Below are positions 22,010 through 45,007 of a stretch of DNA of 64,000 nt, piece by piece. Source of the DNA: Pristiophorus japonicus (lineage: Eukaryota). Both the position numbers and the translations under genes were made by a program. The notes beneath the pieces are model-generated. The model did no database searches and had not been told where the DNA came from. It worked only from the letters and a program-made list of their open reading frames with translations. Within the stretch, counting starts at the first letter, position 1; every line of letters starts with the position of its first letter. The stretch spans positions 12,896,001 to 12,960,000 of the forward strand of contig NC_091977.1 in assembly GCF_044704955.1 (NCBI RefSeq). Direction: 5' to 3'.

Positions 22010-22085
22010 TCAGCTATTGAAAGCTGGCTGACCTCCAGCAGAATCTCCCGGCACAGCCGAGGAGTTGGAAACAGCAGCCAGTTCC
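22010..22085 (-). CDS. Siglec-15-like receptor, predicted exon 5 (cytoplasmic tail)
   Basis: tttgctcag| acceptor; phase 2, matching exon 4; (R)ELAAVSNSSAVPGDSAGGQPAFNS-TGA; AATAAA downstream. Confidence 0.55.
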
Positions 22086-22828
22086 CTGAGCAAATCACAT
22101 GCAATAATTGCCGTTTCCCACCTATCGTACTCACAGTCACCTCTGCCCCATGACCTCTCCCACTATTCAGATCATAGATAAAGCCTGGGCGTTTATACAG
22201 ACTTATATTGGGAATGATCCTCCGAGGATTCCATTCAAAATGTCAATGTGATGCAGGGCTGTGTCGAATAGCTGATTAGCAGTAAGAATTTTGCAGCCAG
22301 GATCTGGATCATTCAGCAATTGATCAATAAAGCAAGTTCAGCTTGAATTGCTGAGTGAGAGTCAGTGCGGGGAGAGCAGAAAAGATTTATACTGCGGTTT
22401 GTACATTTGGTTTCTCAGCCTCCTGGGGTGGATCAGTCCTGCTCCTTTCTGTGGATAAAACAAGACCAATTAAAATGAGCTGTGTGAACTATAAAATAAG
22501 AGCACTTTCATCACCTCCATATACAACCAGCGGCTGTTTAAATAGGATTCACCGCACATTTAAAAATATAAATTTGCCAGCCATTCCCAGCTGGGGCTCA
22601 CCAATTGGTCTAAATGCCACTGGAATAGGGAGAGGAAACATTGCGCAGAGTTCCTGCTCCTGCTGGTATCCAGTGATCCCGGCTGGACATGTACTGTGTG
22701 GTCATTGGCTCGACTAGGATCGCTCAAGTGTTTGACTCTCCTGCCAACCAACACACACTGACCAAGGCTCACCCAGGAATCGGGCTTCAGCCATTTAAAG
22801 GTAAGAGTCTCCCAGCAATGTTACATAC

Positions 22829-22928
22829 CTGGTTTTGTCTCTGTATAAAGTGATACAGATCACGAAAAGGGCAAGGAGTTTCACTCCGAGTGGAATGCAC
22901 AATATCGCAACGGGGAAAGCCTCTGCAA
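22829..22928 (-). CDS. Siglec-15-like receptor, exon 4 (transmembrane helix with Lys)
   Basis: ctttctgttcag| and |gtatgt; phase 1 to 2; VAEAFPVAILCIPLGVKLLALFVICITLYRDKTR. Not present in the ORF track in this frame. Confidence 0.8.
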
Positions 22929-23064
22929 CTGAACAGAAAGTGAGAGATCAAATCGCAGACAAGCAAAGGTGAGATACCAACAATAGAGACAATGAATCCA
23001 AGCCTGTAGACAAGTGTGAAACTCGACTGTAAGGCAGAAATATTGTGGTGATGGAGCTCAGCTA

Positions 23065-26000
23065 CATAAGAACATAAGAAATTGGAGCAGGAGTAGGCCA
23101 TTCGGCCCCTCGAGCCTGCTCCACCATCCAATAAGTTCATGGCTGATCTTCGACCTCAACTCCACTTTCCTGCACTATCCCCATATCCCCTGATTCCCTT
23201 AATATTCAAAAATCTATCGATAGCTGTCTTGAATATACTCAACGTGTGAGCATCCACAACCCTGGTTCCCCTGTGACTCCTGGTTCTTGACTCCCCAGCC
23301 AGGGGAAACATCCTCTCTGTATCCTCCCTGTCAAGCCCTCTAAGAATCTTGAATCTTTCAATGAGATCACCTCTCATACTTCTAAACTCAAGAGAATATA
23401 GGCCAAGTCTACTCAATCTCATCTCATAGGCCAATCCCCCCATCCCAGGAATCAGTTTGGTGAACCTTCATTACACTCTACGGCAAGTATAGAAACATAG
23501 AAAATAGGTGCAGGAGTAGGCCATTCGGCCCTTCGAGCCTGCACCGCCATTCAACGAGTTCATGGCTGAACATGCAACTTCAGTACCCCATTCCTGCTTT
23601 CTCACCATACCCCTTGATCCCCCCCAGTAGCAAGGACTACATCTAACTCCTTTTTGAATATATTTAGTGAATTGGCCTCAACAACTTCCTGTGGTAGAGA
23701 ATTCCACAGGTTCACCACTCTGAGTGAAGAAGTTTTTCCTCATCTCAGTCCTAAATGGCTTACCCCTTATCCTAAGACTGTGACCCCTGGTTCTGGACTT
23801 CCCCAACATTGGGAACATTCTTCCTGCATCTAACCTGTCTAAACCCGTCAGAATTTTAAACGTTTCTATGCGATCCCCTCTCATTCCTTCCTTTGGTAAG
23901 GAGACAAAAACTACACAATACTCCAGGTGTGGTCTCACCAGGGCCCTATATAAGTGCAGTAAGATGTCTTTACTCTTATACTCAAATCATTTTGTAATAA
24001 AGGCCAACATACCATTTACTTTTCTAATTGCTTGCTGTACCTGCATGTTAACTTTCAGTGATTCGTGTACAAGGACACCCAGGTCCCTCTGAACACCAAC
24101 ATTTCCCAATCTTTCACCATTTAAAAAATGCTCTGCTTTTCTATTTTTCCAACCAAAATGGGTAACTTCACATTTCTCCACATTATATTCCATTTCCCAT
24201 GTTCTTGTCCACTCACTTAGCCTCTCTATATCCCCTTGAAGCCTCTTTGCATCCTCCTTACAATTTACATTCCCAACTAGCTTTCTATCATCAGCAAACT
24301 TGGATATATTACATTTAGTCCCCTCATCCAAATCATTGGTACAGATTGTGAATAGCTGAGGCCCCAGCACTGATCCTTGCAGCAACCCACCAATTACAGC
24401 TTGTCAACCCAAAAATTACCTGTTTATTCCTACTCTCTGTGTTATGTCCATTAACCAATCCTCGATCCATGCTAGTATATTACCCCCAATCCCATGAGCC
24501 CTAATTTTGTTTAATAACATCTTGTGTGGCACCTTATCGAATGCCTTCTGAAAATCCAGATACATTACATCCACTGGTCACCCTTATTTATTCTGCTAGT
24601 TACAACCTCAAAGAACTCTTAACAGATTTGTCAAACGTGATTTCCCTTTCATAAATCCATGTTTACTCTGTACAATCCTATTATTATTTTCTAAGTGCAC
24701 TGTTACCACGTCCTTAATAATAGATTCCAGCATTTTCCCCACAAGTGATGTCAGGCTAACTGGTCTGTATTTCCCCGTTTTCTCTCTCCCTCCTTTCTTA
24801 TATAGTGGGGTTACATTTTCTACCTTCCAATCCGCAGGAACTACTGTAGAATCTATGGAATTTTGGAACATGACAACCAATGCATCCACTATCTCGACAG
24901 CCAACTCTTTTAAAACCCTGGGATGTAGGCCATCAGGTGCGAGGGATTGAACGGCTTTCAATCCCATTAATTTCTTCAGTACTTTTTTTTTACTAATGCT
25001 CATTTATTTCAGTTCCTCATTCTCACTTAACCCTTGGTTCTCCGCTATTTCCAAGGCTACCTCCTTAAGTACTCTGGGATGCAGTCCATCAGGCCCTGGG
25101 GATTTATCGGCCTTCAATCCCATCATTTTCCCCAACACAATTTCCCGACTAATAAGGATTTCCCTCAGTTCCTCCTTCTTACTAGACTCTCTGACTCCTT
25201 TTATATATGGAAGGTTGTTTGTGTCCTCCTTAGTGAATACCGAACCAAAGTACTTGTTTAATTGGTCTGCCATTTCTTTGTTCCCCGTTATGACTTCTCC
25301 TGATTCTGACTGCAGGGGACCTACATTTGTCTTTACTAACCTTTTTCTCTTTACATATCTATAGAAGCTTTTGCAGTCCGTCTTAATGTTCCCTGCAAGC
25401 TTCCTCTCGTACTCTATTTTCCCTGCCCTAATCAAACCCTTTGTCCTCCTCTGCTGAGTTCTAAATTTCTCCCAGTCCCCGGGTTCGCTGCTATTTCTGG
25501 CCAATTTGTATGCCACTTCCTTGCCTTTAATACTATCCCTGATTTCCCTTGATAGCCACAGTTAAGCCACCTTCCCTTTTTTATTTTTACGCCAGACAGG
25601 GATGTACAATTGTTGTAGTTCATCCATGCGGTCTCTAAATGTCTGCCGTTGCCCATCCACTTCAATCCCTTAAGTATCATTCACCAATCTATCCTAGCCA
25701 ATTCACGCCTCATACCTTCAAAGTTACCCTTCTTTAAATTCTAGACCATGGTCTCTGAATTAACTGTTTCATTCTCCATCCTAATGTAGAATTACACCAT
25801 ATTATGATCACTCTTCCCCAAGGGGCCTCGCACAACGAGATTGCTAATTAATTCTCTCTCATTACACAGCACCTAGTCTAAGATGGCCTCCCCTCTAGTT
25901 GGTTCCTCGACATATTGGTCTAGAAAACCATCACTTATGCACTCCAGGAAATCCGCCTCCACCGTATTGCTTCCAGTTTGGTTAGCCCAATCTATATGCA

Positions 26001-26108
26001 TATTAAAGTCACCCATGATAACTGCTGCACCTTTATTGCATGCACCCCTAATTTCCTGTTTGATGCCCTCCCCAACATCACTACTACTGTTTGGAGGTCT
26101 GTACACAA
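23065..26108 (-). mobile_element. Mosaic of older and younger CR1 fragments
   Basis: Two 3' tails (cataagaa type at ~23065, catagaaa type at ~23490); RT and endonuclease peptides; 25040-26108 is near-identical to the young CR1 at 46796-49688. Confidence 0.9.
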
Positions 26109-26229
26109 AATAGTATGGAGTGTCAACGAAGAACAACAAATGGAGTGTACCAATAATATAAAATCTCACAGTGATGGGTTAATACTGTAGTATTTACAGT
26201 GACAAGGGTTAATACAGTAGTATACAATT

Positions 26230-27990
26230 ATAGAATGGTTACAGCACGGAAGAAGGCTATTTGACCCATCGAGCCCATGCTGGCTCTCTGCAAGAGCACT
26301 TCAGCTAGTCCCACTCCCCGCACTTTCCCCGTAGCCCTGCCAATTTTCTTCCTTCAGGTTTTATCCAACTCCCTTTTGAAAGCCGTATTGAGTCAGCCTC
26401 CACCACGATTTCAGGCAGTGCATTCCAGATCTTAACCACTCACTGTGGAAAAAAGTGTTTTCTTATGTCGCCTTTGGTTCTTTTGCCAATCACCTTAAAT
26501 CTGTGTCCTCTGATTCTTGACCCTTCCGCCAATGGGAATAATTTCTCTCTATCCTGCCCAGACCCCTCAAGATTTTGAACTTCTCCATCAAATCTCCTCT
26601 CAATCTTCTCTGGTCTAAGGAGAACAACCCCAGCTTCTCCAGTCGAGCCATGTAACTGAAGTCCCTCATCCCTGGAATCATTCTCGTAAATCTTTTCTGC
26701 ACCCTCTCTAAGGTCTTCACACCCTTCCTAAAATGCGGTGCCCAGAATTGGACACAACACTCCAGTTGAGGCCGAACCAGTGTTTTATAAAGGTTCATCA
26801 TAATTTCCTCGCTTTTGTACTCTATACCTCTATTCATGAAGTTCAGGATCCCGTAAGCTTTTTTATGCTTTCTGATTTTTTTAATGCTTTACTGCTGTCT
26901 CAACCTGCCCTGCCACCTTCAACAATCTATGCACATATACCTCTAGGTCTCTCTACTCATGCATCCCCTTTAGAATTGTACCTATTAGTTTATATTGTCT
27001 CTCCTCATTCTACCAAATTATATAAATTAACACTTTCCTGCATTAAATGTAATCTACCACGTGTCTGTCCATTCCACCAGCCTGTCTATGTCCTCTGGCA
27101 GTCTATCACTATCCTCCTCACTGTACACGATACATACATTGTGTCATCTTCAAATTTTGAAGTTGTGCCCTTATACACCTGCATCCAAGTCATTAATATA
27201 TATCAAGAAAAGCAGTGGTCCTAGAACCGACCTCTGGGGAACACCACTGTATAACTTCTTCAAGTCCGAAAAACAACCGTTCACCACTACTCTCTGTTCC
27301 TTGTCGTTTAGCCAATTTTGTATCCATGCTGCCACTGTCCCTTTTATTCCATGGGCTTCAACTTTGCTGGCAAGCCTATTATGTGGCACTTTGTTGAACG
27401 CCTTCTGGAAATCCATGTACACCACATCAACCGCATTGCCCTCATCAACCCTCTCTGTAACCTCATCAAAAAACTCAATCAAGTTGATTAAACACGATTT
27501 ACCTGAACAAATCCAGCTATTCTTAATTAATCCACATCTGTCCAAGTGACTGTTCATTTTGTCCCTAATTATTGTTACTAAAAGCTTCCCCACTACCGAG
27601 GTTAAAATGACTGGCCTGTAGTTGTTGGGTTTATCTTTACACCCATTTTTGAACAATGGTGTAACATTTGCAATTCTCTAATCCTCTGGCACCAGCCCTG
27701 TTTCTATGAAGGATTGGAAGATTATGGCCAGTACCTCCGCGATTTCTTCCTTCACTTCCCTCAGTGTCCTAGTATACATCCTATTTAATCCTGGTGGTTT
27801 ATCTAGGTTCAATACAGCCAGCCTTTCTAGTATCTCCTCTTCATAATTTTTATCCCATCCAGTATCTCCTCTACCTCCTCCTTCACTATGTTTATGGCAG
27901 CATCTTCTTCCTTGGTGAAGACAGATGCAAAGTGTTCATTTATCATCTCAGCCATACCCTCTGCCTCAATGCATGTGTCTGTTTTCTGGC
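26230..27990 (-). mobile_element. CR1 ORF2 fragment
   Basis: NYRPVILTSVVGK, DFQKAFNKVPH, LECCVQFWAPHF. Confidence 0.9.
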
Positions 27991-28219
27991 CTTACACCTC
28001 ATCTTACTACCCGATTACTATGTATGCAGTCTCCTTTGGTGGTGGCTGCCCATGGTTTTTGCACCTTGTACTTTGGGCACCCACCTTTCATGTTTAAATT
28101 AAGGACCACCCCCAGACACCGCGTATTTCAATCGAGACCAGGGGGATTTTTGGCCCCAACGTCCACAAAATGGCACAGTTTGCAGGAACTGATGGATTCG
28201 GTCAGTTAAGAAGAAAAAG

Positions 28220-28745
28220 TGCTTGTACCTTTCATATCCTCAGGCCCTCACAAAGCACTGCATGGACTGCAACGGTTCAAGAAGTCAGGTCACTGCCACC
28301 TTCTACGAGGGTCATTAGGGATGCCCACATCCCATGAATGAATAAGAAAGCAGCCAATGAAGTACTTTTTGAAGTGCAGTCACTGTTGTGATGTATGGTA
28401 TCACAGGGCCAATTTGCACACAGCAAACTCTCACAAATAGCAATGTGATAACTGAGCAGATATCCTGTATATTTTTGCTTTTTTCAGGAATTGATATTGA
28501 CCAGGACACCGGAGAGAATCACTGTTCTTCAAAATAGTGCCATGGGATCTTTTACAGCCATCTGTGAGGGCAGATGGGACCTTGGTTTAACATCTCATCT
28601 GAGAGACAGCACCTCTGACAGTGCAGTGCTCCCTCAGTACTGCACTGGGAAAGTCAGCCGAGATTATGTGCTCGAGTGAGATTTGAAAACATGACCTTCT
28701 GACTCCGAGGCGAGAGTGCTACCCACTGAGCCACAGCTGTTAAGT
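28220..28745 (-). mobile_element. Deu-domain tRNA SINE (second copy)
   Basis: Same head and core as 8170-8640. Confidence 0.7.
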
Positions 28746-28799
28746 GTTTTCTCACTGTACAACCTCTATACACTGGAGAATGTAGGAATGGTTTCTTAC

Positions 28800-29150
28800 C
28801 ATGTACGAGCTGCAGGTGTGTCTCAGTCTGGATTAGATTTATGTAATTGTCCCATCCCTTGTACTCCACCAGACACAGGTAAGTGTGGTTGTCCTTCACG
28901 CTCAGCTGCTTTATCCTGGTTGAAGCGTTTCCCTCCTTTGGGTTCCCGATGAGCTCATACCGATTTCCACCGTTTACAGTTGTCCAAGACCCATTTGATT
29001 GGGCTCTAAATGTGACTACGTGTTGATAGGGCTCCTTCCTCATCCATGTAACAGTGGTCAGGTTGGTGTAGTCGCTGGGTGTGAACATACAGGGCAATGT
29101 AACCGAAGCTCCCTCGGTCCCTCTCACCACTGAGCCATTTCCACTAGCAG
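28800..29150 (-). CDS. Siglec-15-like receptor, exon 3 (second V-type Ig domain)
   Basis: ctttcctcag| and |gtaaga; 351 bp, phase 1-1; GASVTLPCMF...VTW...RYELIGNPKEGNAS...DNHTYLCLVEY. Confidence 0.9.
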
Positions 29151-29188
29151 CTGAGGAAAGGACAGACATCACAATATATCAGCGTCTT

Positions 29189-29943
29189 TGATACATCCTT
29201 ACTATACAGTATAAATGCACATGAGGCCCATGCTTGAGAGAAGGTCAGTCTGTGACCTGTCCTTTATTCCTTAGCACTCAAGTGATGAAGGTGGATGGAG
29301 CTTCCCCTTTTATACCTGAAGGTCCAGGTTAGGAGTGTCTCCCACCTAGTGGTCACTGTTCTCACGGTGTACAACTTAGGTCAGTTTATACATGGGTTAC
29401 AATGCTGGTTGAATACATGACATCACCTCCACCCCCCAAAGTCTTATTGGGATCACAGGTTGAGTCTCTCTGGTGGTTTACGCTCCCTTGTAGAGCGCCT
29501 GAGTTGGGGCTCCGGTTGTTGGGCGCTGGCCTGAGTGTCTGCTGTTTGCGGTGCCTCAGGCCTATCCAGACTGCCCACAGTGACTGGGCTCTCCTCCCTT
29601 TGGTTCCGGTGTTTGGTCACCTGTGGTGGAGTGAACTCTATATCGTGTTCTTCCTCTGCTTCTTCTATGGGGTTGCTGAACCTCCTTTTTGTTTGATCCA
29701 CATGTTTGCGGCAGATTTGTCCATTGGTAAGTTTAACTACCAGAATCCTATTTCCCTCTTTGGCAACTACAGTGCCTGCGAGCCATTTGGGCCCTGCAGC
29801 GTAGTTGAGGACAAAAACAGGATCATTTACATCAATACATCGCCCTCTCGCATTCCTGTCATGGTAGTCATATTGTGACTGGCGCCTGCTCTCGACTGAT
29901 GTCAGTTTATACATGGGTTACAATGCTGGTTGAATACATGACA
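29189..29943 (-). mobile_element. Internally deleted Gypsy LTR element
   Basis: TG...CA ends with 5-bp TSD GTCTT (29184-88, 29944-48); full LTR 29189-29422; PPT; integrase C-terminus (GPKWLAG...RKHVDQ...LRRSTRERKPPERLNL); only 43 bp of the other LTR (29901-29943). Confidence 0.9.
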
Positions 29944-30747
29944 GTCTTGATGAGAACTTTAATTTGTTTCAGTTCAGAGCTCTCCCTGTGGTCTATGGGT
30001 AGAGGTATTGCCCAGTGTAGTACTCAGTCAGTAAGGATCCCAGAGAATGTAGGGTCAGGAGGCCGGGTAGCAGAACGGATTGAGAGATGGCTACAAAACA
30101 GAAAACAGAGGATAGAAGGTAAGGAAAGTTTCTCAGACTAGCAGAAAGTGGGAGGTGGTGTCCTTTGACTTACATTGAAAGGTTCTGTTAATACAACCCA
30201 ATACACTGTCTGCTTTGGCTATGGCTCTCTGCATTGTTCCTGTACCTTGAGTGATGTGTGCACAATAAAACTTGGATCCCTTTCTCTCTGAACCACTTTC
30301 AGTGTTGTTCCCTGAAAATGGTAAGTGTACTCTGTGTTGATCCTACCTACCTGCATCACACTGCATTAGTCGAGGTTAAATGCTGTATCAAGTTCCTCAT
30401 ATACTGTATCCCAAAATAGTATAACTGAAAGAAATGTATCTAATGTGTATCTGCCTCACCCAAATGGCCTTCCTTAGAGCACAAGCCTGGTCAATGTGTG
30501 TCAATGGAATATTTGACTGTGGAGAGCATCACAGGCAGACCCAATGTCTCATCCAATGTCCAAGAACACACCTTCCAGCAGGAGTCACTGGAAAATGATC
30601 AGGAGCAGGAACCCCGGGCAATATTCCCTCTTCATAGCCCGGGGTTTCTGAGAGTTTATTGATCCGTGTGGCTCAGGACCAGACCAGGTGGAGCCTTTTC
30701 CCACTGAGCTATCGGAGCAGCGACAGCCCCTGAACATTGATCCTCAC

Positions 30748-31134: not shown

Positions 31135-34100
31135 CTGTGGAGAGAGAGAGAGACAACATTAAATCAGCATGGGAGCAGACTCAGTGTTTGGAAAACATAC
31201 TGCGAGACAATATACTGAGGGGGCAAAATTGCCCCTTTTATCGCCAGGAAATGATTTCCGCCCGGACGCGGAACAAACATCGCCCCCCCACCCCCGTAGA
31301 ATTGGGCGGGGGGTTTTGCGGAGGCGCTACGAGGCAGCTCGGCGATGATGATGTCATCGTCCCCTTACCACCCCGGAAGTTAAATTGCCCCGAGCAACCT
31401 ACCTTAGCGCCTGCCGATGACACTGACAATGACACCTTCAGCTGTCTAGTTGCAGTCGCGAACCGAATGGAGCAGCGCTATTTAAAGGCTCCGTCTTGAA
31501 AACTATTTTCTTTCGGCCATTACTTTTTTCTGCTTTCCAACAGTTCAGCAGAGTGCCAGCTCTGTTCCAGCCCCAAATGAGCCGGCTATCCACCTGGCTC
31601 ATCACTCCCCTCTGCAACCACACCACTCCTGCCCAGCACTCGCACAATGAGAGCCACGCCGCCGTCTGGAACATCATTGAGCAGACCATCGGAGTGCTGA
31701 AGCAACGGTTCCGCTGCCTTGACCAGTCGGGAGGAGTCCTGCAGTATTTGCCTGAGCGGGTGTCCCTATTCATCGTCATCTACTGCATCATGCACAACCT
31801 GGCCAACATGGGGGCACAGCCATTGCCACCAGGCATAGCTCCACCACCTCAAGAGGAGGAGGAGGAGGACCAGGAGGAGCAGGTGGAGGAGCAACAGCAG
31901 GAGGACGAGGAGGAGCAGCAACAGCCGTGAAGGAGGAGGCAGCGACTCCATTACAATCCTGCAAGGAAGGTCGTTTCCACTGATTTCCATCCTACTTCCC
32001 GGTTCCTCTGGACGTCCCCATCACCACATCACTTTGCCCTTCCTTACCAAAACTAGAAGATGGAAATGAGAGACAACAGCAAACATTAAACAATCCAATC
32101 AACATTTATCAAACAACAATAAAATGTATAAATGTGTGTTATTCATCACCCTTGTGCATTTCCTTATATCCCCTCTTTTGTTGACCTATCCTAATACTCC
32201 TTCGCAGAGTGTCCCCCGGCGGCAGCATGGCTGGTGGATGCCTGTTGTGTGTCGGGGCAAGAGACTACAGATGGCCTTGCAGGACGCCCTCGACCAGCTC
32301 TGGGCCTGGAAAGCCCGGATGCAGACTGCAACACCTCAGCCTGGCTGGCGGCTGTCTGGGCTGGCTGGGTGACAGGCAGCGACAAGGGCAATGGTGGAGT
32401 GGCAGTGGTGGGATCAGGAATGCTGTCAACCTGAGAGAGGACAGCAGGTTCCTGCTCCACTGACCCACTGCCAATCACCCGGGCCAGCACCTCAGCATCC
32501 CCACCAACCTGCTGCAGGACAGATTGCTGGGCTGCTGTGACACTGAGATCCCCGGTTGACTGGTGGACCCAGTGACGATGGCAGCAGTCAGAGCTTGCGA
32601 GACATGCAGCTGAGACTGAAAGACAGCACCAAGACATTGTGTGGCATCAAGTTGAGACTGCACGAGGGCAGTCTAAGCTACCATGCAAGCAACCATCGAC
32701 TCTATGCAGCACCAAGACGTTGCGTTGTTTCCGCCTGTTCTGCAATGGAAGCTGCCACATCGCGTCATGAGGTCTGGATCTGTACGGTCTCTCTGGGAGT
32801 CTACCATTGTCTGCACACTGGCAATGATGAGCTCCATGGTGTGCACAGAGGTCTGTACAATGTGGAAAGTGGACTCCTCCATGCTCCTTACTGCTACCAA
32901 CAGGCTCTCGGGCATCCTTCCCATTGCACCTCTCATGTTGGAGTGCATGATCATCACCCTTTGTGTGAACTCCTCCCAATCGAGGTCTTCATCTGAGTCC
33001 TGTGCAGAACTCATGTACAAACTCACCCTCCGGGGAAATGGCTCCCGAGATTCCCTTTCCTTTTCACTATGCTGCAGCCGGCTAGGCTCCGGTGCATCAC
33101 CCAGTGCAGACCCCTCTACTAACCTAACCTCTAAGGACCGTGTAGTGCCAGTATCTGAGCTAGTGCCTGTGGGTGAGAGAAGCAGTGATACAGTGCTTGG
33201 CTCCTCCTCGTCCCCCTCTTCTCACTATTGACTCAGTTAGGGGGGGGCTCAGGAACAGACTGCTCATCTGCTGCGTGGTTATCTGAAAACATAAATGGCA
33301 CAAGAGTTGCATTAAGGTGAGGGCAGGGGGGCAGGAATGGAGCAAGGAAGGCAGACAGTATGAGGAGCTGGAAAGTGATAAGGCCTTCTGGTGTAACAGG
33401 AAAGTGAGATAAGAAGAGGGGATAAAGATACCATTGTTGCCCCCAGGGAGCTCGATGTCTCCGCCGGCCACAGTGCCCACACCCTGCGGGCCAATAAGCC
33501 GCAGCACTCGCTCCTCCAAGTCAGTCAGCTGGTGCAGTTCAGCTTCTCTCCTCCAGTCTGCTGCTGCTCCCTTCTGTTGTGTGCCATCTTGGCCTGCAAA
33601 AGAAAGGAATCTGTGTGAGTAAGTGTCTAGTTATGTATGTAGAAGATATGCCAGCCATGATTAAATAGCTGTGAACGTAGGGAAGGAGTGAAATGAGGAT
33701 GTGACTGTGGGTAGGTACAGATGGTTGCTGGTTGCCTGCTGGGTTAAGTGCTGGTTTGCAGTGTGTGCACAGACTGAGGCTCAGAGACTGGAATGTAAAA
33801 GTTGTGTAAAGGGTGGTCCCGGGAGTCAGGTTCACCTCTGACATACTTGAGCGGTTCGAATCGCTTCCACTCCCTTGGGTTCTAGACTCTGGATTTATTT
33901 GGGGGATGTGATAAAATGCAAAAGACCACTGGTTTGGTGCAAAAGAACTTTGATTTTATTAAGGATAAGAAAAATACAATGTCACACTTATAATTACACT
34001 AATAAAGAACAGTACATCACATATTCAAAAGAGTTACAGCGAAAATTACACCTCCCACCTCCAAATACCTAATACTGGTTAGGTTAGACTCCAGGGCAGA

Positions 34101-34700
34101 CAGGGACTATGCTTACTAATCCTTTCTGGTCAGCTAGCGGTTTTGGGGTTCTTTGGATCCTGTAGGTTCTGTTTGCCGTACCCCGAACGTCGGAGAGGAC
34201 TTCTTACTGCGCAATCTTCAGTTGGGTTGAGTCCGCTGATGCGGTATGGCGCATTTTGGATTTGTTGGGTAAGTACCTATTTTCTTTCGTTAGAAATAGG
34301 TTTCAAAGTCCTTTTAGTTAATGCTTTCACCTGTTGGTAGTCAGGCTTAGATTGTAGAGTGGAAACTTTCGATTGGTCGGTTTCTTCCTTGTGAAGTTTA
34401 GTTTCGAGTTTGGTCGATCGCGGTGGTTTTAGTGGTACCACGTTGACTGTGGTCGGTTGTTGCCGCAATGGTGATGTTCTTCCTTCTTTTTTGATGTCAA
34501 GACGTCGAGGCTGGAGAAGTTAGTTTACAACTGTCGCGTTGGTTTCTCTCCCTTCTTGATGGCATAGTCATAGTATGGCACTAGCACTATCACAAGCAGT
34601 GTCTATCGAGGCAGTAGCATAAGCAGTAGCAAAGCAAAAGCATACCCTTTTTTAAAGCAGGGTCCAGTTATACGTTTTGAGCTGTCCTAATCTCACGTCA

Positions 34701-35012
34701 GAGAGACGTGAGTCCGGGGTCGGCGAGAGGCCTACAAAAGGCCATGGGAGGCGTCGGGAGGTGTATCGGAGAGACGTGAGTCCGGGGTCGGCAAAAGGCC
34801 TACAAAAGGCCATGGGAGGCGTCGGGAGGTGTAGCGGAGAGACGTGAGTCCGGGGTCAGCGAAAGGCCTACAAAAGGCCATGGGAGGCGTCGGGAGGTGT
34901 ATCGGAGAGACGTGAGTCCGGGGTCAGCGAAAGGCCTACAAAAAGCCGTGGGAGGCGTCGGGAGGTGTATCGAAGAGACATGAGTCCGGGGTCGGCGAAA
35001 GGCCTACAAAAG
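34701..35012 (+). repeat. 68-bp tandem monomers (~4.6 copies) at the CR1 5' end
   Basis: Units start at 34701, 34769, 34837, 34905, 34973 (gagagacgtgagtccggggtc...). Confidence 0.95.
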
Positions 35013-35198
35013 GTGAGCCGGTGCAGCTACAGGGTGAAGGCAAAAAAGAAGTAGAGAGAAATAGAAAGGTGACGTCACAGCCAAGGGGGTAAGTGATTGG
35101 CTGGTGATTGGTGAGTAGTTTTTCTTTTTTCTCTTCTATATCAGTGAGTAACTTTGAACATTGTTGTTGGCAATTTAAGTGTATCTAAGGGTTAAGTC

Positions 35199-36146
35199 GT
35201 GGCAGGAGAGCTCGGACACGTGTTATGCTCCTCCTGTACCATGTGGGAAATCAGGGACGCCTCCGGTGTCCCTGACGACTATGTGTGCGGGAAGTGTATC
35301 CGCCTCCAGCTCCTGACGGACCGCGTTGTGGAATTGGAGCTGAAGGTGGATTCACTCTGGAGCATCCACGATGCTGAGAATGACGTGAATAGCATGTTTA
35401 GTGAGTTGGTCTTACCGCAGGTAAAGGGTACGCAGCCAGATAGGGAATGGAAGACCAACAGGAAGAGCAGTGCAAGGAAGGTACTGCAGGGATCCCCTGC
35501 GGTCATCCCCCTGCAAAACAGATACACTGCTTTGAGTGCTGTTGAGGGGAATGACTCATCAGGGGGGAGCAGCAGCAGCCAAGTTCATGGCACCGTGGCT
35601 GGCTCTGCTGCACAGGAGGGCAGGAAAAAGAGTGGGAGAGCGATAGTGATAGGGGATTCAATTGTAAGGGGAATAGATAGGCGTTTCTGCGGCCGCAACC
35701 GAGACTCCAGGATGGTATGTTGCCTCCCTGGTGCAAGGGTCAAGGATGTCTCCGAGCAGGTGCAGGACATTCTGAAAAGGGAGGGTGAACAGCCAGTTGT
35801 GGTGGTGCACATTGGTACCAACGATATAGGTAAAAAACGGGATGAGGTCCTACGAGACGAATTTAAGGAGCTAGGAGCTAAATTAAAAAGTAGGACCTCA
35901 AAAGTAGTAATCTCGCGATTGCTACCAGTGCCACGTGCTAGTCAGAGTAGGAATCGCAGGATAGCTCAGATGAATACGTGGTTTGAGGAGTGGTGCAGAA
36001 GGGAGCGATTCAAATTCCTGGGGCATTGGAACCGGTTCTGGGGGAGGTGGGACCAGTACAAACCGGACGGTCTGCACCTGGGCAGGACCGGAACCAATGA
36101 CCTAGGAGGAGTGTTTGCTGGTGCTGTTGGGGAGGAGTTAAACTAA
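35199..36146 (+). CDS. CR1 ORF1: zinc finger/leucine zipper plus SGNH esterase
   Basis: CSSC...CGKC, coiled coil, IVIGDSIVRG, PGAR, HIGTND, DGLHL; the start codon reads GTG. Confidence 0.9.
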   Translation: MAGELGHVLCSSCTMWEIRDASGVPDDYVCGKCIRLQLLTDRVVELELKVDSLWSIHDAENDVNSMFSELVLPQVKGTQPDREWKTNRKSSARKVLQGSPAVIPLQNRYTALSAVEGNDSSGGSSSSQVHGTVAGSAAQEGRKKSGRAIVIGDSIVRGIDRRFCGRNRDSRMVCCLPGARVKDVSEQVQDILKREGEQPVVVVHIGTNDIGKKRDEVLRDEFKELGAKLKSRTSKVVISRLLPVPRASQSRNRRIAQMNTWFEEWCRRERFKFLGHWNRFWGRWDQYKPDGLHLGRTGTNDLGGVFAGAVGEELN

Positions 36147-39100
36147 TATGGCAGGGGGATGGGAACCTATGCAGGGAGACAGAGGAAAACAAAATGGAGA
36201 CAGAAGCAAAAGACAGAAAGGAAATGAGTAAAAGTGGAGGACAGAGAAACCCAAGGCAAAAAACAAAAAGGGCCACTTTGCAGCAACATTCTAAAGGGTC
36301 TAAGTGCATTAAAAAGACAAGCCTGAAGGCTCTGTGCCTCAATGTGAGGAGTATTCAGAATAAGGTGGACGAATTAACTGTGCAGATAGCAGTTAACGGA
36401 TACGATGTAATTGGCATCACGGAGACATGGCTCCAGGGTGACCAAGGCTGGGAACTCAACATCCAAGGGTACTCAACATTTAGGAAGTGTAGACAGAAAG
36501 GAAAAGGAAGTGGGGTGGCGTTGCTGGTTAAAGAGGAAAATAATGCAATTGTGAGGAAAGACATTAGCTTGGATGATGTGGAATCGGTATGGGTGGAGTT
36601 ACGGAATACCAAGGGGCAGAAAACGTGAGTGGGAGTTGTGTACAGACCTCCAAACAGTAGGGTGATGTTGGGGAGGGCATCAAACAGGAAATTAGGGGTG
36701 CATGCAATAAAGGTGCAGCAGTTATCATGGGTGACTTTAATATGCATATAGATTGGGCGAACCAAACTGGAAGCAATACGGTGGAGGAGGATTTCCTGGA
36801 GTGCATAAGGGATGGTTTTCGAGACCAATATGTTGAGGAACCAACTAGGGGGGGAGGCCATCGTAGACTGGGTGTTGTGTAATGAGAGAGGATTAATTAG
36901 CAATCTCGTTGTGCGAGGCCCCTTGGGGAAGAGTGGCCATAATATGGTGGAATTCTACAGTAGGATGGAGAATGAAACGGTTAATTCAGAGACCATGGTC
37001 CAGAACTTAAAGAAGGGTAACTTTGAAGGTATGAGGCGGGAATTGGCTAGGATAGATTGACGAATGCTACTTAAGGGGTTGACAGTGGATGGGCAATGGC
37101 AGACATTTAGAGACCGCATGGATGAACTACAACAATTGTACATCCCTGTCTGGCGTAAAAATAAAAAAGGGAAGGTGGCTCAACCGTGGCTATCAAGGGA
37201 AATCAGGGATAGTACTAAAGCCAAGGAAGTGGCATACAAATTGGCCAGAAATAGCAGCGAACCCAGGGACTAGGAGAAATTTAGAACTCAGCAGAGGAGG
37301 ACAAAGGGTTTGATTCGGGCAGGGGAAATAGAGTATGAGAGGAAGCTTGCAGGGAACATTAAGACGGATTGCAAAAGCTTCTATAGATATGTAAAGACAA
37401 ACAGGTTAGTAAAGACAAATGTAGGTCCCCTGCAGTCAGAATCAGGGGAAGTCATAACTGGGAACAAAGAAATGGCAGACCAATTGAACAAGTACTTTGG
37501 TTCGGTATTCACTAAGGAGGACACAAACAACCTTCTGGGTATAAAAGGGGTCAGAGGGTCTAGTGAGAAGGAGGAACTGAGGGAAATCCTTATTAGTCGG
37601 GAAATTATGTTGGGGAAATTGATGGGATTGAAGGCCGATAAATCCCCAGTGCCTGATGGTCTGCATCCCAGAGTACTTAAGGAGGTGGCCTTGGAAATAG
37701 TGAATGCATTGACAGTCATTTTCCAACATTCCATAGACTCTGGATCAGTTCCTATGGAGTAGAGGGTAGCCAATGTAACCCCACTTTTTAAAAAAGGAGG
37801 AAGAGAGAAAACGGAATTATAGACCGGTCAGCCTGACATCAGTAGTGGGTAAAATGATGGAATCAATTATTAAGGATGTCATAGCAGCGCATTTGGAAAG
37901 AGGTGACATGATAGGTCCAAGTCAGCATGGATTTGTGAAAGGGAAATCATGCTTGACAAATCTTCTGGAATTTTTTGAGGATGTTTCCAGTAGAGTGGAC
38001 AAGGGAGAACCAGTTGATGTGGTGTACTTGGACTTTCAGAAGGCTTTCGACAAGGTCCCACACAAGAGATTAATGTGCAAAGTTAAAACACATGGGTTTG
38101 GGGGTAGTGTGCTGACTTGGATTGAGAACTGGTTGGCAGACAGGAAGCAAAGAGCAGGAGTAAATGGGTACTATTCAGAATGGCAGGCAGTGACTAGTGG
38201 GGTACCGCAAGGTTCTGTGCTGGGGCCCCAGCTGTTTACATTGTACATTAATGATTTAGACGAGGGGATTAAATGTAGTATCTCCAAATTTGCGGATGAC
38301 ACTAAATTGGGTGGCAGTGTGAGCTGCGAGGAGGATGCTATGAGGCTGCAGAGTGACTTGGACAGGTTAGGTGAGTGGGCAAATGCATGGCAGATGAAGT
38401 ACAATGTAGATAAATGCGAGGTTATCCACTTTGGTGGTAAAAGCAGAGAGACAGACTATTATCTGAACGGTGACAGATTAGGAAAAGGGGAGGTGTAACA
38501 AGACCTGGGTGTCATGGTACATCAGTCATTGAAGGTTGGCATGCAGGTGCAGCATGTGGTTAAGAAAGCAAATGGCATGTTGGCCTTCATAGCAAGGGGA
38601 TTTGTGTACAGGGGCAGGGAGGTGTTACTTCAGTTGTCCAGGGCCTTGGTGAGGCCACACCTGGAGTATTGTGTAACTTGTGGAAGGACGTTCTTGCTAT
38701 TGAGGGAGTGCAGCGAAGGTTCACCAGACTGATTCCCGGGATGGCGGGACTGACATATCAAGAAAGACTGGATCAACTGGGCTTGTATTCACTGGAGTTC
38801 AGAAGAATGAGAGGGGACCTCATAGAAATGTTTAAAATTCTGACGGTGTTAGACAGGTTGGATGCAAGAAGAATGTTCCCAATGTTGGGGAATTCCAGAA
38901 CCAGGGGTCACAGTCTAAGGATAAGGGGTAAGCCATTTAGGACTTCGATGAGGAGAAACTTCTTCACCCAGAGAGTGGTGAACCTGTGGAATTCTCGACC
39001 ACAGAAAGTTGTTGAGGCCAATTCACTAAATATATTCAAAAAGGAGTTAGATGTAGTCCTTACTACTAGGGGGATTAAGGGGTATGGCGAGAAAGCAGGA

Positions 39101-40199
39101 ATGGGGTACTGAAGTTGCATGTTCAGCCATGAACTCATTGAAAGGGCCGAATGGCCTACTCCTGCACCTATTTTCTATGTTTCTATGTTTCTAGATCAGT
39201 CCAGAATTGTTTGTTTAATTTTGGCGGATCCATGAATTCTTTGTCCTATTGTGGCAGGCTCGTTAATATGTCTCGGGTGGGCTGATCTTCTAAATCTGCT
39301 TCTTGATGGAAATATTAGCTTGGTAATCGCAATATTCTTTGTGCCTGGCTTTTGCATGCAGGCTGGAGTGGGCCTTTTATTTTTATGCATAGGGTGAAAA
39401 TGATTTTCCCGGTTCAGGTTGATGGCTGGCCATCTCTGAGTTAATTGTTGCAATGTTAATGTCTCTTGTGGAGAAGGGTTTTCGAGTATCCATTTTCCAG
39501 ACAATTTACCTTAGTCTCAATGCCCCAGGCAGTTTCAATAATCAAACTGGCTTCTTTAGTTCTCTAGTCCTGCCCACAGACTGAATTTGTCTTGTAATCC
39601 CAAATTTGATTAAAGTTCGTAGTTTCTTCCATGAGTATTTTAGGATTTCAAACTTTCTGGTAGATAGTTCCAAAGTAAATTTCCTTTCCAATGAGTCCAA
39701 ACACGGGGGGTGGCAGTGGGGGGGGGGTGGGGGGGGGGTGAGGGGGGGGGTGCGGTTCCCACAAATTCTGCCCTTCTCTTACAGTTGTGTAAACATCTAC
39801 TCACCTTGACCACCCGAATCATATCGTTGAATTTCTTCCGGCACTGTGTTGGGCTTCTGTCAATCACGGCACTGGCCGACACCTCTGCAGCCACTTCTGC
39901 CCCCAAGGCCCTAAAAACCTGCGGCATTGGCTGTCTCCCAGATGGGGGGAACAGTGCATTTATCCTTCTCTCTGTCCCCACCAATGTCTCCAATGCCAGG
40001 TCATTGAACCAAGTGGCTCATTCAAAAGGCATTGGAGCAACCAATACAGACCTTCCTTCCAGCTCTCATTGAACTTCAGCCATGATGAAAATGACCAGGT
40101 GCTGCCTGAAACGCCATCCCCTTTAAGAACTGGAATGAGCAGGAGGCTGAATATCGCTGATTGAAAATCATCTGAAATTGGGTGCAGCTCTCTGGTAAT

Positions 40200-40785
40200 C
40201 TCATGATAGAGCTAGAGTAAGAGAGAGAAGTGTGAAATTGAATCAGAAGGTTAGAGTGAAGAACCATCACCATAAATGGTTAAAGTGGTTACCAGGAAGA
40301 GTAGTGAAGATATGTGGTCCTCGCACATATTTGGTCAAGATGTTTGATCATGGAAAGGTTAGGTTTGTTCACATTGATCAACTACAGATGTGGAAGGAGT
40401 TGAAAGTTGGAATGATTCGATTATTTCTGATGATTCAGATAGTCTTGTTACAAGAAGAGTATCAGTAGCAAATCCTACATCAGATGTATGAGAAACAATT
40501 CCAAGAGAAAGTCAGAATTTAAATCCAAGTCCGAGTCAGGTAGACAAACCATCTGAAGTTGTAGAGAGTTCAAATGTAGATCAAGGGCTGCCATTGGAGA
40601 AAAACTCTCCTCAGGCTCAGCCTAGAATGAGTCTACGTTCGACAACAAGTTTGGAAAGTTCTGTTCGAGAGGGAAGGTATCTTCCAAAAAGAAAACCAAT
40701 GGTTAAGTTTGATTTGTAAGTATGAAAAAATAAGTTTATATCTTTTTTTGTGTATAACCATGCAAGTTATGTAAGATGATTATTT
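40200..40785 (+). mobile_element. Gypsy integrase C-terminal fragment
   Basis: KVRVKN...KWLPGRVVKICGPRTYLV...RFVHIDQ. Confidence 0.75.
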
Positions 40786-41059
40786 TAGAAACATAGAAAT
40801 TTATAGTACAGAAGGAGGCCATTTCGGCCCATCATGTCTGCACTGGCCGACAAAGAGCCGCACGGCCCTTCGTCAGTCGCCCTAAAGGTTACATACAAAC
40901 CCATGAACAATGATGGAAAGGCAAAGAGCACCCAGCCCAAACACTCCACTCCAACCGGAGCCATGCGATCTCCTGGGAGAGGCAAAATCTAGATAAAAAC
41001 CCAGGCCAATTTAGAGGGAAAAATTCTGGGAAAATTTCAATCCATCCAGGCGATCAAAA

Positions 41060-41410
41060 CTGGGGGGTGGGGGCAGGGGGAGGGGAGAGAGGTGGCGGGG
41101 GAGGGAGAGAGAGGCGGCGGGTAGGTGGGGGGGAGAGAGGCGGTGGGGGGGAGAGTGAGAGAAACAGCAGGCGGGGGAAGAGAGAGGCGTCGGGTGGGGG
41201 GGAAAGAGAGGCGGCGGGGAGAGAGGAACACGTGGGGGGAGAGAGAGAGAGACGCCGGGGTGGGAGAAAGAAAGAGAGACACGGGGGAGATAGAGTGCGA
41301 GATGGGGAGGGAGAGATAGACTGGGGGGAGAGAGAGACTGGGGAGGGAGAGAGGGAGACTGGTGAGAAAGAGAGAAGCATGAGGGAGGGAAGAGAGAGAG
41401 AGACACAGGG
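41060..41410. repeat. GA-rich low-complexity tract
   Basis: Purine-dominated plus strand. Confidence 0.9.
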
Positions 41411-42829
41411 GTGGTGTATCACTCAGGGAAGAAGTATCACGTTCTTCCAACCCCTTTACACCCACACCCAATTTCTCGGAAAGTGGAAGGGACATCGTTG
41501 GTGTGGAAGAAATCCGGAAGTCACGACACTGTCACTATTCACTTCATACCCAATAAACCTGTTAACAATCCGTGACCCATACTTGGGCTGGGGGTGTCAG
41601 GAATTTCGGTATAAGAACGTAAGAAATAGGAGCAGGAGCAGGCCATTTGACCCCTTGAGTCTGCTCCGCCATTTAATAAGATCATGGCTGATCTGATCTT
41701 GGGCTCAGCTCCACTTCCCTGCCTGCTCCCCATAACCCTTCACTCCCTTATCGCTCAAATATCTGTCTATCTACACCTTAAACTTGGGTTGGGATCAGGA
41801 ACTTCGGCTGGGGGAGCCATGCACTTGGGCTGGGGTCAGGAAGTTTGGCTGGGGGAGACATGCACTTGGGCTGGGATGGGGTCAGGAACATGGGAGGCTT
41901 TTGCTGGGTTGGTGGATATCGATCCTCTCTGGGTTCTGAAGTCAGAATGGCTCGAATTACACTTTGCAAAGTCACTCAGAACTTGGGCTGGGCGGTTCCA
42001 TTTACACATTCCAGAGAAATCTAGGTGCGGCTTATCATCCAAGGGGACCAATCAGCAATCAGGTCATGTGATAATGGAGAGCCAATCAGATCATTTTCAC
42101 AGTGCAAATAACTGCACCCAGCTTTTATACCACTTTTGCAGCTGTCAACTATTCAGAGGAATGGAGAGTTACTGAAACCCTGACCTACTTACCCGATGTG
42201 AAACCCGAGCGCAGGGAACCTTGTGAAAAAGCTGGAAAATGGTAGGTACACGGTAAAATGCTGCTTAAAAATCTTTTAACAAGCTTTTAACTTTGTCAGT
42301 GGCTGCCCCGCCACTTGGTGTCGAGTCTATAAAGCACAGGCAGAACGGCACTTGGGAAACTGACATGGAGGCGGGTTGACAGTGAGCTGGCGACTTGCTG
42401 TCAATCTTCTACATTTTGACAGCGGACCCACCTCCAAACCCATCCTCTGAGCACCGGCAAAATTCCAGCCTCAGGCGCTGTTCCGTCTTCATCCCATTCA
42501 AACGCTACGTTGAACACAATCATGCTATGATCACTATTGGATAAATGTTAACGCAGTTAGGCTGTTAAATCTGTCCCGTTACTCATTACTAATATGCCGT
42601 GCCCCCTTGTTGCCTATAGGACATATCGTTGTCGAAAATGATCCCGGACACACTCAAGAAAATCACTGTCTTTCTGACAGGTGCTAGTCTGCTTATCCCA
42701 ATCGATATGAAAGTTAAAACCTCCATTAAAACGGGGGAGATAGAGAGCGAGATGGGGAGGGAGAGATAGACTGGGGGGAGAGAGACTGGGGAGGGAGAGA
42801 GGGAGACTGGTGCACGCTTGTCTAATCTA

Positions 42830-43305
42830 ATAACAGAATACCCGGGAGTGAGTTACAGGCTGGAATCTAATCGAGTGTTCCGGTGGTTTATATATAGATT
42901 ATTGGATACCCGTGAGTGATTTACAGGCTGGAATTTAATCGAGGGGTTCGGGTGGTTTATATATAGAATATTGGATACCCGTGAGTGATTTACAGTCTGG
43001 AATCTAATCGAGTGTTCCGGTGGTTTATATATAGATTATTGGATACCTGTGAGTGATTTACAGGCTGGAATCTAATCGAGTGTTCCGGTGGTTTATATAT
43101 AGAATATTGGATACCCGTGAGTGATTTACAGGCTGGAATCTAATCGAGTGTTCTGGTGGTTTATAAATAGAATAACGGATACCTGTGCGTGAGTTACAGT
43201 CTGGAATTTAATCGAGAGGTTCGGGTGGTTTATATATAGGATATTGGATACCCGTGAGTGATTTACAGACTGGAATCTAATCGAGTGTTCGGGTGGTTGA
43301 TATAT
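42830..43305. repeat. ~68-bp satellite, ~7 copies
   Basis: Unit atacccgtgagtgatttacaggctggaatctaatcgagtgttccggtggtttatatatagattattgg. Confidence 0.95.
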
Positions 43306-43424
43306 CGGGATTGAGAATCCGGTCCTGATGCAGTGCCAGTGAGACCATGCTCTTTAAACACTGTGCTCTCTGATGACCTCGGGATTTAATACAGGATCAG
43401 TGGTTTACATCTGCAACAACAAAT

Positions 43425-44705
43425 GATCTAATTGAGGTGTTTAAGATGATTAAAGGATTTGACTATTTCCTCTGGTGGGGTAGTGGAGAACAAGGGGCAT
43501 AACTTTAAAATTAGAGCTAGGCCGTTCAGGGGTGATGTCAGGAAGCACTTCTTCACTCAAAGGGTCGTGTAAATGTGAAACTCTCTGCCAAAAAGCTGGT
43601 GATGCTGGGGATCAGTTGAAAATGTCAAAACTGAGATTGATAGGTTTCTGTTAGGCAAGGCTATTAAAGGTTGTGGAACCAAGGCGGGTAGATGGAGATC
43701 AGACACAGATCAGCCATGATCTAATTGAATTGCGGAGCAGGTTGGAGGGGCTGAATGGCCTTCTCTGGTCCCTATGCAGAGGTAGGGAGTTACAGGGCTA
43801 TGGAGGGATTTATAGACAAGGACAAGAGATTTAAATTGAATGTTTGATGGGATGGGCTGCCAGAGAAGGTCAGGGAGTGATACACACGAGCAGACAAAAA
43901 AGACCAGCTGGCACCTTCAGGGTTAAAGAGAGAGAGAATGATCACTTCTCCCAGACACCGACAGCTGCCTACACCAGCTCTCAGCTCCCTCTGCCACTTC
44001 CAATATCTCCACCACCCTTCATTCCCCAGCCATACAATGGCGTTCCACGCCACAGGACAGGTAGAAACATTAATCAAAAAGGCTGATGGAATATTAGCCT
44101 TTATATCGAATGGGCTAGAATAGAAAAGGAAGATGTTTTTCTACCGTTCTAAAAAAACTCTGGTTAGATCACATATTGAGAACAGCTCTGGGCACCACAT
44201 GTAAGGAAGGATATATTAGCCTTGGAACAGTGCAGTGCAGTTTCACCAGAATGTTACCAGGGCTCCAAGGGTTACATTTTGAGGAGAGATTATATAAAGT
44301 AGACTTGTAGTCCATGGAATATAGAAGGTTAAAGGGTGATTTGATTGAGGTTTTTAAGATATTGAAAGGACTTGTTCGGGTAGATCAAGAGAAGGTTTTT
44401 TACTGGTGGGGAAGTTGAGGATAAGGGAACATAACCTCACATTCAGAGCCAGACCTTCCACCAGAGGTCAGGAAAAACTTCTTGACGCAAAGGGTGGTAG
44501 AACTGTGTGGAACTCTCTCTGTAAAAATACCCAGCGCAAGAAATAATTTTAGCTCTGAGATCGATAGATTTCTGCGAGCCAAGTGTAGTAAGGGATATGG
44601 AGCCAAGGCAGGTGAATGGAGTTAAGGTACACATCAGCCAGGATCTCATTAAATGGTAGAACAGACTCGAGGGGCTGAATGGCCGACCCCTCTTCCTATG
44701 TTCCT
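43425..44705 (+). mobile_element. Old CR1 3' fragments
   Basis: Two CR1 ORF2 ends with 3' UTRs (43425-43775, 44020-44705). Confidence 0.75.
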
Positions 44706-44875
44706 TGTGTCTCGCTCGAAACCTGACACTCGCTCTGCCCCTCCCTGTTTCTCTGACTGACCGTCGCTCCCCTGGACTTTCACCCACTGCGACCCAACGG
44801 TGAAATAGTAAAAAGGAGCAGTTTATGCAACAAAATGAAAGTGAACAGTTGTTAATGGAAAGCACCTACTGTAAC

Positions 44876-44930
44876 CCTGCACCGAGACCGACAGCAGGAC
44901 TGTGGGAAGCCAAACATAGAGAGAATTCAT
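44876..44930 (-). CDS. Siglec-15-like receptor, predicted exon 1 (signal peptide)
   Basis: ggcgATG then MNSLYVWLPTVLLSVSVQ; phase-1 donors after 44876 (G|gttaca) or 44870 (A|gtaggt), both compatible with exon 2; lies in unique sequence with promoter motifs upstream. Confidence 0.65.
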
Positions 44931-45007
44931 CGCCAGCTCTCCGCTGTTTCGTCCTTCTCCTTCGCTGCTTCTTGTCTCCTGACACTAAAATGCTCAAAGT
45001 GTTTCTT

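Follow-up and report, generated by a model that had tools for sequence, protein, structure and literature searches.

The 64,000-nucleotide stretch analysed here (the window), positions 12,896,001 to 12,960,000 of contig NC_091977.1 of the sawshark Pristiophorus japonicus, carries an intact gene of five exons that encodes a membrane receptor with two immunoglobulin (Ig) V-set domains, V1 and V2. All of its parts lie on the minus strand and are given in window coordinates. The coding part of exon 1 (44930-44870) supplies the signal peptide, 20 codons plus one base, and ends at a phase 1 donor, GTAGGT; the 5′-untranslated region (5′-UTR) upstream of it reaches at least position 44972 in a public contig. 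Exon 2 (31134-30748) encodes V1, a Siglec-15-like V-set domain with Trp27, the core pair Cys47-Cys129, an extra pair Cys76/Cys89 and Gly130 at the site of the essential arginine, and exon 3 (29150-28800) encodes V2, a second V-set domain with two cysteines only, a leucine at the arginine position and five N-glycan sequons. The transmembrane (TM) segment with Lys283 occupies exon 4 (22928-22829, 100 bases), which ends at a phase 2 donor. Exon 5 contributes the last four tail residues and the stop (22448-22433, stop 22435-22433), without a tyrosine motif, and a 3′-UTR (22432-21924) with its AATAAA signal at 21929-21924. Both Ig exons match the Pfam V-set profile (E 8e-13 for V1 and 7e-16 for V2), whereas the leader, TM and last exons were placed by a hydrophobicity scan and splice-site reading. 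The exon ends are GT/AG, the phases run 1,1,1,2 and the joined exons form one open frame of 304 amino acids with a type I layout: leader, V1, V2, TM with Lys283 and a nine-residue tail free of tyrosine motifs. No exon, splice site or poly(A) signal is damaged. Automatic annotation had already modelled the gene, the product being letter-identical to the UniRef model P0047, a Pristiophorus japonicus 'uncharacterized protein isoform X1'.

The original prediction had read this locus as five exons with the same phases, encoding a type I V-V receptor of about 320 residues without a C2 exon. Its leader, V1, V2 and TM exons, its phases and its C2-less layout hold; the last exon begins at acceptor 22448 and not at 22121, and the product is shorter than proposed. 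The 22121 acceptor, which would give 336 residues with a stop at 22010, lacks a pyrimidine tract and sits inside the continuously covered 3′-UTR. A longer hydrophobic frame at 23063-22829, beginning at the end of a long interspersed nuclear element (LINE), was also discarded, because the spliced TM exon uses another frame. A C2 profile gives no match in the window, and the same profile detects both neighbouring control C2 exons (E 9e-31 and 6e-24); a tblastn search of the window with C2-bearing relatives likewise matched V exons only. Intron 3 (22929..28799, 5,871 bases) is LINE-filled, and neither a C2 exon nor a remnant of one was detected in it.

Splicing was read from contigs of three public runs of one study, of unrecorded kind and tissue, which were used solely for the junctions that they bridge. 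All four junctions, which the original prediction had proposed to check with RNA reads, are present as CT..AC joints: 31134/44870, 22928/28800 (V2 direct to TM) and 22448/22829 in the three runs, and 29150/30748 in two of them. One 3′-UTR contig covering 21934-22430 is specific to this copy, with 497/497 identical positions, while the other copies found reach at most 489/497. The gene is real, and the exon structure is proven for the family, mostly through a sister copy (see below). Exon 5 (22448-22385, minus strand) is readable in two frames. A 286-residue soluble model that skips the TM exon, P0006, reads it in the other frame, and an acceptor four bases further in would give 318 residues, an equivalent of which is modelled in the horn shark (P0014). 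Both of these forms end in a Thr-Ala-Val tail, resembling a class I PDZ-binding motif; neither was seen in the public contigs.

Several lines of evidence point to Siglec-15 as the nearest relative of V1. Its best match in the PDB is Siglec-15 (7ZOZ, E 2e-16), followed by CD33 (3e-6). In PMC10264397, the Siglec-15 V domain is described by the C64-C142 bond, a distinctive C95-C104 bond, W44 and an essential R143, and the R143A change abolishes binding. The equivalents of W44 and of both cysteine pairs are all present in V1 (Trp27, Cys47/Cys129 and Cys76/Cys89), the extra disulfide being predicted from the alignment. In an AlphaFold model built from a 40-sequence alignment, with a predicted local distance difference test score (pLDDT) of 82, the modelled V1 superposes on 7ZOZ with Z 13.1 and 1.8 Å over 120 residues at 38% identity. 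Two-domain phosphatase Ig modules tie with this superposition score at a higher root-mean-square deviation and 16-18% identity; PILR, CD300 and TIM are not among the structure matches listed for V1, which excludes nothing, and a whole-model Foldseek search returned generic V-V proteins (JAML, single-chain antibody fragments) at a TM-score of 0.35 or less and is uninformative. In sequence scores, V1 reaches 72-77 bits against Siglec-15-type domains, 52 against CD33/CD22-like, 51 against PILR-like, 45 against TIM and 35 against skate/catshark pIgR/CD300-like domains. V2 is homologous to the V2 of V-V-C2 relatives (79 bits) and scores 62.0 against Siglec-15 and 62.8 against TIM. Lys283 aligns with the TM lysine of bird, lungfish and mammal Siglec-15, which according to PMC7226832 is required for binding of DAP10/DAP12.

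These resemblances do not make the protein a Siglec. It has the N-terminal Siglec-type V-set domain, but the F-strand arginine is missing from both V domains and no C2-set domain follows, and for these two reasons we do not file it there; the Siglec-15-like V domain of the original prediction is borne out. Measured against Siglec-15 orthologues, it has the extra cysteine pair, the tryptophan and the TM lysine, and lacks the V-C2 layout, R143 and the tail tyrosine motif. The cysteine beside the core tryptophan that belongs to a second disulfide, present in domains of P0141 and P0187, the skate and catshark pIgR-like proxies that stood for the modular domain immune-type receptors (MDIR) and CD300/pIgR/TREM, is absent from V1 and V2. 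TIM (HAVCR) proteins are marked by four extra cysteines, an FG-loop WFND-type motif and a mucin stalk; V2 has two cysteines only, no such motif and no stalk. Kinship to Siglec-15 is likely on the strength of similarity, diagnostic residues, the TM segment and C2-bearing neighbours, and does not rest on the tree.

The search for homologues returned 45, all from sharks, rays and skates. Together with three members of the cluster described below they make 48 proteins, among which 39 are V1-V2, five are V1-V2-V1-V2, four have other V-only layouts and none has a C2 domain. By this count of layouts V-V is the norm of a shark and ray subfamily and not peculiar to this gene; the original prediction had called it atypical for Siglecs. 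Tandem Siglec-15-like V domains also occur elsewhere: a lungfish has a protein with seven V domains and a C2 as well as a V-V-C2 protein, a newt has V-V with a tyrosine-motif tail, a characin and a chimaera have V-V-C2 and a bamboo shark V1-V2-V1-V2 (proteins examined: P0049, P0081, P0087, P0105, P0080 and P0001). Two kinds of receptor end are seen in the family: one combines a TM lysine and a short tail, while the other joins a neutral TM to tyrosine motifs of the ITIM (immunoreceptor tyrosine-based inhibitory motif) type. No functional or evolutionary description of the family was found in listings of openly accessible papers, nor in passages of PMC8455134 and PMC7862078.

In the sawshark the family forms a cluster that spans 2 Mb of the contig of this gene (C1). 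V1 matches in the genome amount to seven close copies (83-100%, this one included) and seven distant ones, which supplies the paralogue count that the original prediction had asked for. An ITIM-tailed gene at C1:11.21-11.24 Mb, 1.7 Mb away, is 85% identical to this gene in V1 and 90% in V2; near-identical ectodomains, opposite signalling ends and one cluster are what define paired receptors, and the same activating/inhibitory pairing is seen in horn shark and skate-type proteins. The original prediction of a cartilaginous-fish activating family was right about the cartilaginous fishes and the TM lysine, and missed that the family is paired. C1 carries copies of the lysine-TM exon at 12.40 (damaged), 12.53, 12.69 and 12.92 Mb. 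One unplaced contig has a further copy, and another has the last exon by itself. Some copies are broken, with a stop in V2 at C1:12.480 Mb, a frameshift in V2 at 11.286 Mb and a TM deletion at 12.396 Mb. The cluster also holds C2-bearing relatives, in both of which C2 and TM share one open frame: one is a V-V-C2 gene with a TM lysine (C1:12.756-12.765 Mb), the other a V-C2 gene (C1:12.724-12.735 Mb). Further C2-bearing relatives are named in the sevengill shark, devil rays and chimaera. For bird SIGLEC15, every one of the best matches in the genome is located in the cluster or in one of its unplaced copies. The top match, C1:13,293,461-13,294,983 (minus strand, 42%), is V-V and keeps the arginine and the extra cysteine pair; no C2 or lysine-TM match was found in the 40 kb downstream of it, and a homologue search with its V1, a weak one, gave none among 17 candidates. 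Separate V-exon loci of PILR-like, TIM and CD33/CD22-like type, several in tandem, lie at C4:53.9, C4:77.0, C33, C22:60, C4:25-27 Mb and C36. The unplaced contigs C4015 and C4093 are mirror-image repeat units of about 200 kb of the cluster, and no V-V exons were found upstream of the lysine-TM exon at C1:12,687,055. The assembly probably fails to resolve all copies.

In a tree of 101 domains the V1 domains of the V-V family form one clade (100/100). V2 joins the V2 of V-V-C2 proteins, those of the chimaera included, with 100/98 in this tree and 98/93 in a mixture-model tree of 39 domains. In the smaller tree TIM moves out of the Siglec-15-type group, and the Siglec-15-type plus shark domains split from CD33/CD22 plus PILR-like domains (89/90) and from TIM plus CD300/pIgR-like domains (94/94). 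Neither tree groups V1 or V2 with pIgR/CD300-like, TIM or PILR-like domains, and the PILR-like domains are a branch of their own in both. In the domain phylogeny, which the original prediction had proposed, V1 falls in one group with SIGLEC15, with support under 95. V domains of activating and inhibitory members pair by species with starred support, and the label lysine or neutral TM changes seven times on 33 rows, no fewer than in shuffles. Ectodomains grouped by species in this way are also what gene conversion produces in Siglec-11/16, as reported in PMC5701461.

The arginine site deserves separate attention. Its codon is GGT (Gly) in this copy and CGT in four paralogues, and because glycine replaces the essential arginine we predict that this copy does not bind sialic acid. 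The arginine is kept in the first V1 of 48 of the 59 family proteins. When the 18 without a TM were dropped and the remaining 41 were collapsed at 97% identity to 33, it was kept in 23/24 neutral-TM members versus 4/9 lysine-TM members (Fisher p 0.003), an asymmetry between TM types that is suggestive only. Loss in lysine-TM genes recurs in bamboo sharks (His/Tyr) and in a skate (Ser), and a second intact lysine-TM copy with the same glycine lies at C1:12.516 Mb. Among the copies of this genome pN/pS, the ratio of nonsynonymous to synonymous differences, is 1.05 in V1 and 0.77 in V2, with the V1 changes clustered in two loop regions; the V1 pattern would fit diversifying selection or relaxation.

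Where does the cluster lie with respect to SIGLEC15 of other vertebrates? We take the human neighbours of SIGLEC15 to be SLC14A1, EPG5, PSTPIP2 and ATP5F1A. In the sawshark, contig C2 carries urea transporters (100.7-101.2 Mb), a match to the C-terminal part of ATP synthase alpha/beta (46.69 Mb) and an RNF111_N gene (46.92 Mb). A reading of 600 kb of C2, made up of 400 kb next to the ATP synthase alpha/PSTPIP-type genes and 200 kb past the urea transporters, detected the controls but no Siglec-15 V exon, and EPG5 was not located in the genome. The cluster itself is on C1, with pikachurin (11.06 Mb, the single copy found) as its left neighbour and NAT8L (13.48 Mb) on the other side; pikachurin presumably shares the bird Z chromosome with SIGLEC15. 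Family proteins and NAT8L are apparently on the same contig in 7/7 comparable elasmobranch species, and so it is for the newt V-V protein and not for the axolotl protein. NELF-A, which we take to be a human neighbour of NAT8L, is located on C2 (46.3-46.9 Mb), alongside a PSTPIP-type F-BAR gene, a PAPA-1 gene and the ATP synthase. Because it stands on C1 beside NAT8L, apart from the human neighbours of SIGLEC15 on C2, the cluster could be a whole-genome-duplication paralogue.

What might this receptor do? We read the 304-residue protein as a likely activating member of a paired shark and ray family, likely of Siglec-15 descent, with predicted DAP12/DAP10-type signalling and no sialic-acid binding, a reading to which we give a probability of about 0.7. 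The membrane-distal V1 would bind ligand, with the glycosylated V2 as a spacer in place of C2; ligand binding would cluster the receptor, and an adaptor bearing an immunoreceptor tyrosine-based activation motif would dock on Lys283 and lead to leukocyte activation. The ITIM-tailed twins, nearly all of which keep the arginine, may read self sialic acid and act as a brake, and duplication or gene conversion may have passed ectodomains from one member to another. The ligand of this copy is likely something other than sialic acid and probably microbial, unless the copy is drifting. The V-V layout likely arose from V-V-C2 when the C2+TM exon lost its C2 portion. Tentatively, and with more doubt than conviction, we add that a paired sialic-acid checkpoint may have evolved in the cartilaginous fishes separately from that of mammals and from the Siglec-15 rather than the CD33 lineage, in which a second V replaced C2 and activating members repeatedly shed the arginine (at least three independent losses: Gly in the sawshark, His/Tyr in bamboo sharks, Ser in a skate) while inhibitory members keep it. 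If this is true, the brakes would read a self sugar and the accelerators would be freed to track microbial ligands.

A number of observations weigh against the activating, Siglec-15-derived reading or parts of it. The 101-domain tree links V1 to the Siglec-15-type domains weakly (93/79) and with TIM inside that group, and under approximately unbiased (AU) tests a V1 placed with CD300/pIgR-like (p 0.147) or with PILR-like domains (p 0.093) is not rejected. The variant letters of the spliced contigs, of which only the best-supported were displayed in the copy assignment, fit a paralogue on the unplaced contig C4015 (11/11 sites in V1 and 5/5 in V2), and the junction evidence is for this reason mostly evidence for a sister copy or allele; 3′-UTR variants of the contigs fit two other copies (8/8). 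That C4015-type paralogue keeps the arginine and is yet spliced to the lysine TM, from which it follows that the activating type does not imply an arginine-less V1. Corrected for kinship, the arginine asymmetry is not significant, since among five independent pairs 3.0 go the same way, 0.1 the opposite way and 1.9 are equal (p 0.25), and an extended count of 24/25 versus 5/13, made after the first had been seen and adding four members of inferred type, again gives p 0.25, on seven pairs. As nearby copies are pseudogenes with a stop or frameshift in V2, the arginine loss may be decay. Loss of C2 rather than its gain is argued from the presence of C2 in Siglec-15. The adaptor gene was not found, the Pfam DAP10 profile scoring 0/84 candidates over its cut-off, a null that the short exons make uninformative, and a 2014 screen (PMC4016189) found no FcR-gamma in shark genomes.

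The gene could instead be a relaxed or decaying recent segmental duplicate of an arginine-bearing activating receptor, its frame still open, its ligand binding lost and little function left, much as in a SIGLEC16P-type allele. There are several near-identical copies, some of them broken, the spliced contigs match the arginine-bearing C4015 copy and not this one, a V1 pN/pS near 1 suits relaxation as well as selection, and relaxed constraint is reported for Siglec-11/16 in PMC5701461. We still hold decay to be improbable, given that the gene is undamaged in all five exons and in its splice sites and poly(A) signal, that a 3′-UTR contig specific to this copy exists, that the second intact lysine-TM copy has the same glycine and that bamboo sharks and a skate have likewise lost the arginine in genes of the lysine-TM type. 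It is easier to imagine, though on balance doubtful, that the cluster is the true shark SIGLEC15 orthologue locus, expanded, in which DAP12-linked myeloid activation was retained, the architecture changed and the arginine loss was incidental. Such an origin is compatible with our activating-receptor reading. No better single-copy SIGLEC15 match turned up elsewhere among 117 candidates scored, the 600 kb beside the neighbour genes on C2 hold no Siglec-15 V exon and pikachurin, of which a single copy was found, adjoins the cluster on the left; yet this gene has none of the C2 domain, arginine and tail tyrosine motif of bird and mammal Siglec-15, other genes of the cluster are closer to SIGLEC15 (that at C1:13.29 Mb with 42% and the arginine kept), and the location on C1 by NAT8L is not that of the human-type neighbours.

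A convergent likeness to Siglec-15 would be expected if the protein belonged with skate MDIR, CD300, pIgR and TREM, or were a relative of PILR or TIM. The automatic names of family members in RefSeq and UniRef models of elasmobranchs and chimaera, which are inconsistent ('sialic acid-binding Ig-like lectin 10/12/15', pIgR-like, JAML-like, A33-like, 'uncharacterized'), include some that point this way, V2 scores equally well with TIM and with Siglec-15 and the AU tests leave the CD300/pIgR-like and PILR-like groupings standing. But V1 scores far better with Siglec-15-type domains than with any of these, MDIR being represented by proxies, the cysteine beside the core tryptophan and the extra cysteines of TIM are absent, both trees keep V1 and V2 apart from such domains, and PILR-like and TIM genes have loci of their own on C4. 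We regard this origin as very improbable.

Intron 1 (31135..44869, 13,735 bases) is full of LINE, DDE-transposase and other repeats. A 952-codon unbroken LINE frame with endonuclease and reverse-transcriptase domains lies at 46901-49756 (minus strand) and, as the frame is uninterrupted, is a young copy; a related, broken LINE copy with an esterase-type ORF1 (first open reading frame) lies within intron 1 at 35196-39100 (plus strand). A DDE_Tnp_4 transposase fragment (31433-31927, plus strand), presumably of Harbinger type, precedes the V1 exon by 300 bases within intron 1. Fragments of an endogenous retrovirus at 59300-63800 (plus strand) match Pfam zinc knuckle, protease, RNase H, integrase and envelope over several broken frames, and GC-rich tandem arrays at about 11620-11950 and 50100-50650 contain repeating frames of 11 and 18 residues (units of about 33 and 54 bases).

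Compared with known systems, the gene shares with human Siglec-15 (7ZOZ; V-C2-TM with lysine) the sequence and predicted fold of V1, the equivalents of W44 and both cysteine pairs and the TM lysine motif. It differs from it in being V-V and not V-C2, in having glycine at R143, no Y87 equivalent, no tail tyrosine motif and a G-strand loop three residues shorter, and in belonging to a multigene paired family with different neighbours instead of being single-copy. Expanded paired Siglecs have been studied mainly in mammals, where Siglec-5/14 are one primate set. Primate Siglec-11/16, according to PMC5701461, resemble the shark family in their near-identical ectodomains, ITIM versus charged-TM ends, clustering and species grouping. 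The primate pairs are CD33-related and have C2 domains, whereas the shark family uses a Siglec-15-like scaffold without C2. The CD33/CD22-like genes of sharks are located elsewhere. PILR-alpha/beta follow the same logic as a C2-less pair of Siglec fold with arginine-dependent sialic-acid binding and a DAP12-linked activating member (PMC13358205). Sharks and rays nevertheless have separate PILR-like genes (C4:53.9 Mb; a sawfish protein named PILR-alpha) without the Siglec-15 cysteine pair. The MDIR of skates are modular, paired, multigene Ig receptors of cartilaginous fishes, of CD300/pIgR/TREM-like type, and share with this family its multigene, modular-domain and activating/inhibitory character; MDIR-type proxies, used in place of real MDIR, score half as high as Siglec-15-type domains against V1 and differ in cysteine pattern. 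The protein likely has the role that the activating partner plays in paired Siglecs or PILR.

Siglec-15 is described in PMC7226832 as one of four conserved Siglecs common to fish and mammals. As a single gene the sawshark receptor is a modest find, already annotated automatically and with its function predicted only. The family to which it belongs would offer concrete leukocyte receptors to shark immunology, a field in which many mammalian receptor families are reported missing. Its natural near-identical pairs, one base apart at the arginine codon, would lend themselves to asking cleanly whether selection drives the activating partners of such pairs to become blind to self. If a Siglec-15-derived paired cluster does span sharks, rays and chimaera, the logic of brake and accelerator would have arisen more than once, on different Siglec scaffolds.

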